Positions 45,242 through 47,843 are shown, numbered from the stretch's first letter. The stretch is 64,000 bases of DNA from Patescibacteria group bacterium (GCA_049604715.1 JBMYTV010000001.1:91610-155609); one strand, 5' to 3'. Notes: a model not told the origin generated them from the letters alone. Made by a program: numbers and translations.

Positions 45242-45703
45242 TTACCAAAGTGTAATCATCAAACCTAAGAACACTATCTGAACGAGAATGCCGTATTTGA
45301 ACGGTATTTCTTTTTTGAAAAAACCGTGCAAATAAGTGTGCATTTTTTGATGGGTATGAATAAGTTTGAACCTTCCTTTGGTTTTTATTTCTATGAATTG
45401 AAGGCCGTCAGGGAGGCATGCTAAAAAGGCAGCAATTATTCCTCTCCAAAGTGGAGTTGATGGGTGAGTATAAAAGTATGCCCCTAAAATGAGTAGAATA
45501 ATTAAGCCATCAATACCTGCTATTAGTAGCATGCGTTTTTCTTTCTGCTTTTCAGTAAATGAATCTGGTATAAGGTGTTCATCACCGTGAGGTATGCTAT
45601 CTACTATGTAGTGCGATATAAACGATATTGGAAAGAGAAGAGCAGCATGCAGTGGCATTGTTGCGAGTACAAGCGCAGCTGAAGAGTGGACAGATAAAAA
45701 CAT
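45242..45703 (-). CDS. hypothetical membrane protein (possible YdjM-like membrane-bound metal-dependent hydrolase)
   Basis: 153 aa. His/Asp-rich segments (HYIVDSIPHGDEH) between TM helices. Confidence 0.45.
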   Translation of the reverse strand: MFLSVHSSAALVLATMPLHAALLFPISFISHYIVDSIPHGDEHLIPDSFTEKQKEKRMLLIAGIDGLIILLILGAYFYTHPSTPLWRGIIAAFLACLPDGLQFIEIKTKGRFKLIHTHQKMHTYLHGFFKKEIPFKYGILVQIVFLGLMITLW

Positions 45704-45792
45704 AAAAAAATTATAATAACTTTATACAGTATAGCATGCTGGATTACATTGTGCTGGTACTAAAAAACAACCTCTAAAACGAGATTGTTTTT

Positions 45793-45813
45793 TGGTGGCG
45801 GGGGTGGGATTTT
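45793..45813 (-). repeat. partial duplicate of the 3' end of tRNA-Met (20-nt identity), att-site-like
   Basis: tggtggcgggggtgggattt at 45793-45812 is identical to 45907-45926, which is the tRNA 3' acceptor/T-arm region. Flanking bases are also similar. Confidence 0.6.
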
Positions 45814-45869
45814 CCGCCCAAGGCGGACCAGCCTTGGGCTGGGAACCCACTTAGTTTATATTCTAGACC

Positions 45870-45900
45870 CATAACACAACAACCTCACTAAAAAGTGAGG
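45870..45900 (-). terminator. hairpin terminator downstream of tRNA-Met (minus strand)
   Basis: cctcact-aaaaa-gtgagg (45883-45900). On the minus strand it is followed by ttgttgtgtt. Confidence 0.55.
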
Positions 45901-45906
45901 TGTTTG

Positions 45907-45983
45907 TGGTGGCGGGGGTGGGATTTGAACCCACGACCTCCAGGTTATGGGCCTGGCGAGCTGCCGGACTGCTCTACCCCGCG
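45907..45983 (-). tRNA. tRNA-Met (anticodon CAT)
   Basis: Manual fold: D-arm GAGC/GCTC. Anticodon stem CCAGG/CCTGG with loop CCCATAA. T-arm GTGGG-TTCAAAT-CCCAC. Encoded CCA. 77 nt. First acceptor pair appears to be C:C in my fold. Confidence 0.8.
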
Positions 45984-46023
45984 TCGATCGTAGTATCCAC
46001 TATAGCTTGATTTTTAGCATATG

Positions 46024-47034
46024 TCAAGCTGTCTTAGCGTAAAATTGGTCAGATTCTTCTTTGAGTGGTTTCCACCATGATTCATTTTCTTTGTACCAGA
46101 TAATAGTTTTTTCAAGCCAGTCAGCTGTATTATGTAGTGGTTCCCAGCCTAAGTCCTTTTTGATAAGACTCCAATCAACAGCATAGCGTCTGTCATGACC
46201 AGCGCGATCTCGTACAGTCTCAAGCCAAGATTCGTCGTACCCAAAGTGTTCAAGCACCATAAGCGCTAAGTCCTTGTTAGACGTGTCTTCAGTTGACCCT
46301 CCGACGCAGTATGTTTTTCCTAAAGTGTCTTGATTTTGCACAATGAGATCAATAGCACGGCAGTGATCATCAACATATAGCCAATCTCTGACATAGAGAC
46401 CATCTCCATAGATTGGAATTTTTTCACCATGCATAACATTTGTAATCATGCGGGGTAGGAATTTCTCAGGGTATTGGTAAGGGCCATAGTTGTTTGAGCA
46501 GTTAGTTATAGAGAAGGGTAGGTCAAATGATTCACCAAACGCTCTTACAAGATGATCAGCAGCAGCCTTGCTGGCTGAGTACGGGCTACGTGGATCATAG
46601 GGGGTGTTTTCTGAAAACTTTTCTTGATCACCAAGTTTTAGTGAGCCAAATACTTCATCAGTGGAGATATGGTGAAATCGTTGTATACCGTGATCACGCG
46701 CAGCTTCAAGTAGGTTGTGTGTTCCTAGTATGTTTGTCTCCAAAAAAACATGGGAGTTATCAAGAGAGCGATCAACATGTGTCTCGGCTGCAAAATGAAC
46801 AAGCATATCAGGTTTTACTTTTTCAAAAATGGCATACACTCCCGTTTTGTCATTTATTGATTGCTCAATGAAGGTCACATTTCCAGCATCAATTTCATTT
46901 TGAATATTGGCCTTATTACCTGCGTAGGTGAGTGAGTCGATGACTGTAAGATTATCATCTGGATGATTTGCGCGCCAATAGTGGACGAAGTTTGATCCTA
47001 TAAAGCCCGCCCCTCCGGTAATAAGAATATTCAT
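46024..47034 (-). CDS. rfbB: dTDP-glucose 4,6-dehydratase
   Basis: MNILITGGAGFIGSNF. Catalytic YSASKAAAD (YxxxK). 336 aa. Confidence 0.9.
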   Translation of the reverse strand: MNILITGGAGFIGSNFVHYWRANHPDDNLTVIDSLTYAGNKANIQNEIDAGNVTFIEQSINDKTGVYAIFEKVKPDMLVHFAAETHVDRSLDNSHVFLETNILGTHNLLEAARDHGIQRFHHISTDEVFGSLKLGDQEKFSENTPYDPRSPYSASKAAADHLVRAFGESFDLPFSITNCSNNYGPYQYPEKFLPRMITNVMHGEKIPIYGDGLYVRDWLYVDDHCRAIDLIVQNQDTLGKTYCVGGSTEDTSNKDLALMVLEHFGYDESWLETVRDRAGHDRRYAVDWSLIKKDLGWEPLHNTADWLEKTIIWYKENESWWKPLKEESDQFYAKTA

Positions 47035-47525
47035 AGTAGTTGTTTTAAATAATGAGTGATGAAGTCTGCATGCATTGTACCAAAAAATAGAAAATCATTC
47101 AGCTCTATAAAAACTCGTCTTGTTGCTGGATAAAAATGTAGTGTAGTCGAGGAGTTTTGTTGTGAGATGTGAGATTCTTGTATTGTATTTGAAACAAATG
47201 TTTCTTTAAGATCATGACCATGCAATATAATAACAGAGTCTTGTAGCGATGCAGTTGCTTCATAGCACATGAGTTTTTGTTTGTGACATAGGTTGCCGAC
47301 AATAGGAATGTTTACTTGTAGGCTACATATATTATCTTTTTTGATTTTGGTAAAAGCATCACCACAACCAGAGTTCTTGTATGTATACAGAATTTGCTTG
47401 GTAGTGTCTGATATGCATGTTTCGCGAACTATGGTTGGTGTGCATACTCTTGCTAGGGTTGTATTTGGTAATAGTAAAAAAATGCCGTACACGACGACAT
47501 ACAAGTAAATATTCTCCCTCCTCAT
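47031..47525 (-). CDS. hypothetical Cys-rich secreted protein
   Basis: Signal peptide. 8 Cys. Stop overlaps the rfbB start (ATGA). 164 aa. Confidence 0.5.
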   Translation of the reverse strand: MRRENIYLYVVVYGIFLLLPNTTLARVCTPTIVRETCISDTTKQILYTYKNSGCGDAFTKIKKDNICSLQVNIPIVGNLCHKQKLMCYEATASLQDSVIILHGHDLKETFVSNTIQESHISQQNSSTTLHFYPATRRVFIELNDFLFFGTMHADFITHYLKQLL

Positions 47526-47646: not shown

Positions 47647-47734
47647 GCCGCGGTGGCGGAACTGGTAGACGCGCGGGACTCAAAATCCCGTATGCTTTTC
47701 GCATGTGAGAGTTCGATTCTCTCCCGCGGCACCA
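47647..47734 (+). tRNA. tRNA-Leu (anticodon CAA)
   Basis: Acceptor GCCGCGG/CCGCGGC. Anticodon stem CGGGA/TCCCG with loop CTCAAAA. Long variable arm TATGCTTTTCGCATGTG. T-arm GAGAG-TTCGATT-CTCTC. CCA encoded. 88 nt. Confidence 0.85.
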
Positions 47735-47737
47735 TAC

Positions 47738-47814
47738 GGCAGGGTAGCTCAGGTGGTTAGAGCGAGGGAATCATAACCCCTAGGTCGTGGGTTCAAGTCC
47801 CACCCCTGTCACCA
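47738..47814 (+). tRNA. tRNA with CAT anticodon (Met or lysidine-modified Ile2)
   Basis: GGCAGGG acceptor. D-arm GCTC/GAGC. Anticodon loop ATCATAA. T-arm GTGGG-TTCAAGT-CCCAC. CCA encoded. 77 nt. G1:C72 is paired, so not an initiator by that criterion. Confidence 0.8.
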
Positions 47815-47843
47815 AAAACTCACTTTTTTAAAGTGAGTTTTTG
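47814..47843 (+). terminator. rho-independent terminator after the tRNA pair
   Basis: aaactcacttt-ttt-aaagtgagttt followed by tt. Confidence 0.75.

Follow-up and report, generated by a model that had tools for sequence, protein, structure and literature searches.

What left a second copy of the 3' end of an initiator tRNA gene just downstream of the gene itself in a Patescibacteria group bacterium, and what is the palindrome lodged beside it? The locus lies in a 64,000-nt stretch of DNA (GCA_049604715.1 JBMYTV010000001.1:91610-155609), here called the window, and all positions below are counted from its first letter. An initial annotation had noticed a 20-nt repeat of the tRNA end and had read the locus as an att-site-like scar.

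The intact gene is a minus-strand tRNA-Met(CAT) with an encoded CCA at 45983..45907 (ARAGORN; Rfam RF00005, 59.6 bits), one of three tRNAs that ARAGORN finds in the window. Its C1xC72 mismatch and A11:U24 pair, both read from the sequence, identify it as the initiator type (tRNA-fMet). Relatives have the usual C1xA72 where this gene has C1xC72, and A29:U41 replaces the first of the three canonical anticodon-stem G:C pairs. A consensus scan placed a promoter-like site on the minus strand at 45999..46027 (TTGACA, 17-nt spacer, TATAGT; 11/12 matches), which is a consensus match only. Directly after the gene comes trailer X (56 nt, 45851-45906), which contains terminator-like hairpin 1 (45882..45901), a bidirectional structure seen in the terminator scan and in the fold. 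Beyond X lies the duplicate, here called copy B, and directly after it trailer Y begins with terminator-like hairpin 2 (45759..45796, arms 45759-45774 and 45781-45796; inverted repeat I18 and fold). The neighboring minus-strand ORF (45242..45703, 153 aa) has no Pfam match and served as the synteny anchor in homologue searches.

The 20-nt repeat is real: TGGTGGCGGGGGTGGGATTT occurs exactly at 45793-45812 and at 45907-45926, and ARAGORN and Rfam agree that the latter is the 3' end of the minus-strand tRNA-Met. Chance matches with three or fewer mismatches are expected 0.02 times in shuffles of the window, and the observed count was reached in 0 of 100 of them. The terminator hairpin at 45882-45901 and the palindrome (gcccaaggc...gccttgggc) that had been described between the repeats are both present as well. 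The exact 20-mer is, however, only part of a true duplicate of 28 nt that is interrupted by a 30-nt insert. On the tRNA strand, copy B reads GTGGGTTC, then the insert, then AAATCCCACCCCCGCCACCA, and once the insert (45813-45842) is taken out, it equals tRNA positions 49-77 with 28/28 identity. Its 5' part (45843..45850, minus strand; positions 49-56, the T-stem 5' strand plus TTC) has 8/8 identity at exactly that place, for which the chance is 4^-8. Its 3' part (45793..45812, minus strand) is the exact 20-mer and corresponds to positions 57-77, that is, the 3' part of the T loop, T stem, acceptor 3' strand, A73, and CCA. Copy B therefore spans the whole T arm and the acceptor 3' strand through CCA, with its break in the T loop. 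The uninterrupted junction, GGGATTTGAACCCA, occurs solely in the intact tRNA, 107 nt away. The second palindrome, first taken as spacer content, is instead a 30-nt insertion element, here called E, that divides the duplicate exactly in the T loop. The two direct repeats are 114 nt apart, and only 56 nt between the copies is neither tRNA nor E.

A stretch of 233 nt across copy B is identical in an independent Logan assembly (L001), so the locus in this metagenome-assembled genome (MAG) is no local misassembly. Logan contigs of the same organism (L171, end 3628, and the start of L001) have their break precisely at the 3' end of tRNA-fMet, with an overlap of ~30 nt, which suggests that other strains in the sample share the tRNA and differ in their trailers.

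An unusual second tRNA, whether intron-containing, split, or permuted, would account for the T stem, acceptor 3' strand, and CCA kept in copy B. We give it next to no probability: ARAGORN calls no tRNA at 45793-45850, Rfam returns no match there at E-values up to 10, nothing upstream of copy B resembles a D arm, an anticodon arm, or a 5' acceptor strand, and none of the 13-mers of the tRNA-fMet 5' part recurs within 600 nt. The covariance-model check for a second tRNA at the repeat, which the initial annotation had proposed, was thus negative, and a second, split, or intron-bearing tRNA at copy B is largely refuted by ARAGORN, Rfam, and the missing 5' parts.

Copy B might also work as a structured RNA, in the form of a tRNA-like 3' minihelix whose T hairpin is extended and whose CCCCGCCACCA tail is free; it could act as a decoy or substrate for the enzymes of the initiator tRNA 3' end or as a processing or termination module. 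Its fold is stable (-29.8 kcal/mol, z = -3.98), it has its own terminator, and the absence of substitutions in 28 tRNA-derived nt within unrelated surroundings could equally reflect selection on copy B. Similar T-arm-plus-E hairpins also follow other tRNAs, some with altered stems that still pair. We nevertheless regard this role as very improbable. The consensus scan called no promoter between the two terminators, copy B sits after hairpin 1 and before hairpin 2, and it is absent from L003 and L004, the sole relatives compared. E is promiscuous elsewhere, with random orientation, and the Rfam scan by E-value assigned the region of E and copy B to no known RNA family. With no promoter detected and a position between two terminators, copy B is probably silent or merely read through. 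Copy B is a pseudo-copy of the initiator tRNA gene beside it, truncated at the 5' end, without function, and with E in its T loop.

The two repeats had also been credited with similar flanking bases, a likeness that turned out to be that of two terminators in the genome's usual tRNA style. Trailers X and Y align with a score of 12, and X aligns with the trailer of the elongator tRNA-Met (47815 onward) with a score of 15, both far above shuffles. Since X is no more like Y than it is like an unrelated trailer, the flanks provide no evidence of a recent tandem duplication, and they fit a trailer X that was supplied from elsewhere. These scores bear on the idea of a local tandem duplication by slippage or unequal exchange, running from the T arm to the terminator, with E later entering the downstream copy. 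The spacing of the direct repeats and the hairpin plus T run after both copies agree with such an event, and contig L123 holds a true tandem amplification of such units. Had the trailers diverged since the duplication, however, 28/28 identity in the tRNA-derived part would be very unlikely, and we consider a tandem origin distinctly unlikely.

Element E occupies 45813..45842 on the plus strand. It is antisense to the tRNA, and in copy B it separates T-loop positions 56 and 57. It consists of two abutting 6-bp hairpins with 3-nt loops, TCCGCC-CAA-GGCGGA and CCAGCC-TTG-GGCTGG, and is the sole GC-rich double hairpin in the window. The window copy scores 57.2 bits against covariance model R1, of which it is itself a seed member, and it matches exactly the family pattern TCCGCC-nnA-GGCGGA followed directly by YCAGCC-Tnn-GGCTGR, with Y:R pairing. 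Among the matches listed from metagenome, IMG/VR, and genome contigs, 135 distinct copies have full flanks. Near-identical copies occur in at least 120 metagenome contigs (at least four of them from Hainich groundwater assemblies), in 15 IMG/VR contigs, and ~70 nt downstream of tRNA-fMet in a Komeilibacteria genome (L031). E is a large family found in tRNA-gene remnants, in intergenic DNA, and in frame within protein genes of ultra-small bacteria (Patescibacteria) and of viral contigs. Neither GenBank phages nor PLSDB plasmids yielded a match, and we found no description of E in the searchable literature, the coverage of which is incomplete and hence no proof of novelty.

Invariance of the stems follows merely from the search design, in which the pattern fixed them. 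Among the 135 listed copies, the loops vary as nnA and Tnn, and the outer pair of hairpin 2 covaries (T:A in 81, C:G in 50, and T:G in 3). T stands at the two positions before E in 121/135 and 97/135 of these copies, and A or G at the two positions after E in 106/135 and 127/135, with no conservation beyond the adjacent bases. A scan with hairpin 1 alone returned mostly background in viral contigs (77 of 89 sites without a second hairpin); where an abutting second hairpin is present, it is nearly always YCAGCC or TCCGCC. The covariance model recovers E variants and half-elements, and together with the sequence specificity of hairpin 2 these variants argue that the family is conserved in sequence, not in structure alone. 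Across 20 related loci, the single match at the Rfam gathering threshold was an unrelated TPP riboswitch.

Several familiar categories were considered for E and rejected. It is not a CRISPR repeat: the window has one copy, and the multi-copy contigs L123 and L088 repeat the "spacer" too. Nor is it an intrinsic terminator, since on either strand T precedes it and A or G follows it, and the true terminator-like hairpins are separate. The consensus has no GTAG/CGTC tag and no Y1 transposase was found within the window, so that E does not qualify as a REP or REPIN. A strand-specific RNA function is not supported, because the orientation of E is random with respect to neighboring genes.

Comparison of filled and empty sites indicates how E inserts. 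Copy B reads ATTT[E]GAA where the intact tRNA reads ATTTGAA, a clean insertion without target-site duplication. Filled and empty paralogous sites were available in the window and in L070, L100, L122, L123, L089, L125, and L075, and none has a target-site duplication; E inserts after TT and before R/A. About a third of the copies among the matches listed (45/142) fall within long ORFs, and in 24 of these 45 the reading frame yields (F/I)SAxGGPAxGW. Each of the 24 belongs to the C:G type; in a T:A copy, this frame would contain TGA. One DnaJ has three copies in its G/F region, 25 of 120 Patescibacteria DnaJ homologues carry one to three E segments, and presence or absence of the segment varies among DnaJ proteins that are 70 to 85% identical. 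Such presence/absence patterns suggest that E is mobile. Among the matches listed, intergenic copies are co-directional with neighboring genes in 15 cases and opposite in 13, and this random orientation argues for a selfish element acting at the DNA level rather than a strand-specific RNA signal. An insertion into a real tRNA would destroy the gene, which may be why E is seen solely in dispensable tRNA remnants, intergenic DNA, and tolerant protein linkers.

Transfer RNA genes are a favored neighborhood. Among the matches listed, 17 of 133 metagenome copies of E lie 100 nt or less from an intact tRNA, an interval that makes up 1.9% of the bases in the loci (6.9-fold enrichment, p = 6e-10), and these copies sit in a truncated copy of the same tRNA. 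An intact tRNA paired with an E-bearing truncated copy was found for at least 12 other tRNAs, often with small GIY-YIG ORFs adjoining; Arg, Pro, Val, Ser, Thr, Asn, and Lys tRNAs are represented, with E in the T, D, or anticodon loop. In the T loop, E lies between TTC and RAAT (the window tRNA-fMet, L131 Arg with 18 nt exact, L070 Pro, L162 Val, L057 Ser, L053 Thr, and L115 Pro). D-loop insertions occur in L122, L123 (four tandem units), L100, L056, and L101, and insertions in the anticodon loop or stem in L089, L068, L057, and L052. On the antisense strand, the T loop has the sequence ATT(T/C)^GAAC, which matches the TT^RA target well and explains why E is usually antisense. Other hairpin inserts and E-less fragments at tRNAs in the same contigs, including 3' fragments that start in the T loop near other tRNAs (L056 and L160), make tRNA loci evidently general targets of small mobile DNA.

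Individual loci differ in their details. Upstream of an intact tRNA-Arg, L123 (2551-3000) has four tandem 70-nt units, each composed of tRNA-Arg positions 1-21, E in the D loop, and a 19-nt spacer. A fragment of positions 22-72 lies downstream. The spacers on the two sides of the gene form imperfect inverted repeats, so the dead halves add up to a single complete tRNA disrupted by E. A pseudo-tRNA-Ser downstream of the intact tRNA-Ser in L068 (895-1012) is altered at three places: E interrupts the anticodon loop, one E-type hairpin replaces the variable arm, and the T loop contains a variant double hairpin (TGCTCC../CCCGCC..). In L162 (1650-2260), tRNA-Ala is preceded by its own 5' half (positions 1-36) and a GIY-YIG ORF, and in the downstream fragment the T arm is replaced by a 24-nt perfect palindrome, CCCCTCCTCTCGCGAGAGGAGGGG. 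The T-arm-plus-E hairpins of L057 and L053 are followed by the acceptor strand, and their stems are altered and still pair. In L032 (2157-2360), a 3' fragment of tRNA-Leu(CAG) lies 93 nt downstream of the gene, and its T loop holds an insert of another kind, a single hairpin. The hairpins that follow the gene and the fragment share the loop TTA and differ in their stems.

Small GIY-YIG ORFs adjoin tRNAs at 13 places in the E-bearing loci, 8 of them in loci with an E-bearing tRNA fragment. These ORFs have ~75 to 155 codons and at most sites lie 0 to 30 nt from the tRNA, often between a 5' fragment and the intact gene (L057 3648-3881; L056 69-458; L162 1900-2151; L052 2447-2695; L100 11956-12225; L053 5285-5632 and 6665-7078; L101 177-464; L089 146-481; L032 7271-7600; L033 711-1181). 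They look like homing cassettes aimed at tRNA genes. Four loci have the order 5' fragment with E, a gap of 30 nt or less, GIY-YIG ORF, and intact tRNA. On the side of E towards the intact gene, the tRNA-derived sequence is short in all mapped cases (3 to 8 nt in downstream fragments and 8 to 12 nt in upstream ones), and on the far side it runs towards the tRNA end, reaching it wherever it can be traced.

Both the four ordered loci and the consistently short side are in keeping with the idea that insertion of E is coupled, mechanistically or selectively, to the partial duplication, either because a cassette or patch rescues an E-hit tRNA or because a nuclease that recognizes E triggers a duplicating repair. 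In L123 and L162, likewise, a fresh tRNA cassette may be nested within a disrupted tRNA. We think such coupling rather unlikely: no GIY-YIG gene lies within the window, the short side is one stem strand and would be given equally by att-type identity blocks, the samples are small, and the mechanism is hypothetical. The short side does count against the explanation that we favor, in which the fragment came first and E later, because that order predicts it only if the fragments are att-type identity blocks.

Our favored explanation is that copy B is a dead tRNA-fMet 3' fragment, probably produced by a partial duplication through mobile DNA, the T loop of which was then colonized by selfish E. 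Partial duplication of the 3' part of the tRNA would have regenerated an intact gene with a new terminator, in X, and would have left the displaced tRNA end with the original terminator, in Y, beside the 153-aa ORF. The agent would most likely have been mobile DNA acting at the tRNA gene, by att-type integration or as a tRNA-targeting cassette of the kind represented by the GIY-YIG+tRNA units in related contigs. This DNA may subsequently have been deleted down to 56 nt, and E would then have inserted into the dispensable T loop of the dead copy.

A classical att scar would mean that integration of a tyrosine-recombinase element at the T loop/3' end of tRNA-fMet copied the 28-nt identity block and that deletion later removed nearly the whole element, with E an incidental later passenger. 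Williams (2002) reportedly defined sublocation classes of tRNA-gene att sites, among which T-loop-type elements are said to duplicate the gene from a T-stem strand to CCA; copy B has this extent. Like tRNA att sites, the window has a direct repeat that runs from a stem-loop to the 3' end and lies downstream of a regenerated intact tRNA, which has received a new trailer while the old one stays with the displaced end; X and Y have nothing in common except generic terminator design. The E-less fragments that start in the T loop (L056 and L160) would also be accounted for. The window differs from such sites in having no cargo, only 56 nt between the copies, and a displaced copy interrupted, in what would be the crossover loop, by a 30-nt element. 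A Pfam scan of the 59 ORFs in its 64 kb found no integrase, resolvase, transposase, or GIY-YIG gene, and all of these ORFs are housekeeping genes or have no match. Nor would an att scar account for the 5' fragments that lie upstream of other tRNAs and carry E in their D loops, or for the association with GIY-YIG ORFs. Lacking a recombinase, and with 56 nt as the only possible foreign DNA, the att-scar reading is plausible and unproven. Of that first proposal, a duplicate that is not a tRNA and that runs from the T-stem 5' strand to CCA has stood, whereas no integrase or transposase accompanies it; we rate a classical att scar as possible but doubtful.

Mobile DNA elsewhere does carry this tRNA end. 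A lone 21-nt tRNA-fMet 3' fragment, CAAATCCCACCCCCGCTACCA, is present in two high-GC viral contigs (L016 6001-6020 and L019 12420-12439), probably as an att site in both. A large serine recombinase gene of L016 (4496-6082) has the fragment at its 3' end, so the tRNA-fMet end occurs by itself beside a recombinase gene. No attP-like T-arm-plus-E arrangement was found among the 15 IMG/VR matches.

Relatives of the locus are scarce. The 153-aa ORF has only three homologues in 5.8 billion proteins, exact-protein look-ups returned the same organism and no close relative, and a search of genome contigs with the tRNA 3' half gave five loci, none of them syntenic. L003 and L004, in which the neighboring ORF is 54 to 55% identical, have a single tRNA-fMet in the opposite orientation and no duplicate. 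Their tRNA-fMet lies ~320 nt from tRNA-Leu, and they are without the two genes, an rmlB-like gene and a 164-aa ORF, that separate tRNA-fMet from tRNA-Leu in the window (46024-47525). Gene order thus points to an inversion and the gain or loss of two genes relative to L003 and L004. Farther along the window (47647-47814), tRNA-Leu(CAA) and the elongator tRNA-Met are just 3 nt apart, whereas the order is Leu-fMet-Met in two other Patescibacteria-type contigs (L031, the Komeilibacteria genome, and L035). The tRNA-fMet 3' half and terminator (45881-45949) form a 69-nt, 77% inverted repeat with the elongator tRNA-Met 3' half and terminator (47772-47840). L004, unlike L003, has a GC-rich double hairpin of another kind downstream of tRNA-fMet (230-275), in surroundings that resemble a T arm.

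The 3' duplicate is in itself an ordinary feature, a tRNA-end repeat of the att or tyrT type. In Escherichia coli tyrT/rtT, the tRNA-Tyr 3' end is duplicated downstream of the gene. As in copy B, the last ~19 to 20 nt of the tRNA, including CCA, are repeated shortly downstream; the tyrT repeats differ in being 178-bp tandem units with no hairpin insertion.

For E, the likenesses that we can draw are of behavior or of form. The Rickettsia palindromic elements (RPEs) were reportedly described by Ogata et al. in 2000. RPEs are ~100 to 150 bp long, are confined to Rickettsia, and occur in frame in proteins as well as in RNA genes and intergenic DNA. E resembles them, by behavior only, as a selfish palindrome of a small genome that inserts in frame into proteins and adds a peptide, but it is 30 nt long, presumably differs in sequence, and is found in Patescibacteria-type and viral contigs. 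The double-hairpin elements (DHEs) of Allomyces and the GC clusters of yeast are organellar and variable in length. They share with E, again by behavior only, the form of short GC-rich double hairpins in AT-rich compact genomes, also inside genes, and in both cases mobility has been deduced from presence and absence. E differs from them in its fixed 30 nt, its TT^RA target, and its strong link to tRNA remnants, and it is presumably unrelated in sequence. Three papers mention mitochondrial DHEs (PMC10085805, PMC4618339, and PMC2800124).

Small hairpin-forming repeats are also known as REPs and REPINs, which are associated with RAYT, and as the PATEs derived from IS200/IS605, and E is comparable to both. 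Like E, IS200/IS605 elements have a hairpin at each end, insert on the 3' side of a specific short sequence, and leave no target duplication. E lacks the GTAG/CGTC tag of REPs. REPs are also extragenic, while ORFs contain a third of E copies, and the window yielded neither a RAYT nor a TnpA gene.

It is a possibility, which we advance tentatively, that E represents an undescribed class of ultra-small (30-nt, stop-poor, in-frame-compatible) mobile double hairpins that favor tRNA-gene loops, that the combination of tRNA and fragment, with or without a GIY-YIG ORF, records rescue or homing, and that the window is a decayed example. If so, tRNA-carrying cassettes would replace E-disabled tRNA genes, or nucleases would target E itself, and E would have spread through Patescibacteria and contigs classed as viral by IMG/VR.

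A duplicate of a tRNA 3' end alone would be routine; the palindrome that interrupts it reveals a very abundant 30-nt insertion family in a bacterial radiation that is among the largest and the least understood. The greater value of the locus thus lies in the E family and in the tRNA/GIY-YIG architecture rather than in the tRNA repeat. For mobile-DNA mechanisms, E offers a hairpin-only unit with a defined target, with small GIY-YIG ORFs beside tRNAs in many of the same loci. For genome evolution, it is an instance of selfish DNA that apparently persists in streamlined genomes of ~1 Mb by means of a few tolerant sites. In annotation, in-frame copies add a recurrent 10-aa segment, usually SAxGGPAxGW, and tRNA pseudo-fragments also break assemblies. 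In practice, presence or absence of E could mark strains in groundwater metagenomes.

In one further contig (L088 1-300), three copies of E lie within short tandem repeats with AACTCAGGTTTC units. The GC content of this contig is 58%, so E is not confined to low-GC genomes.
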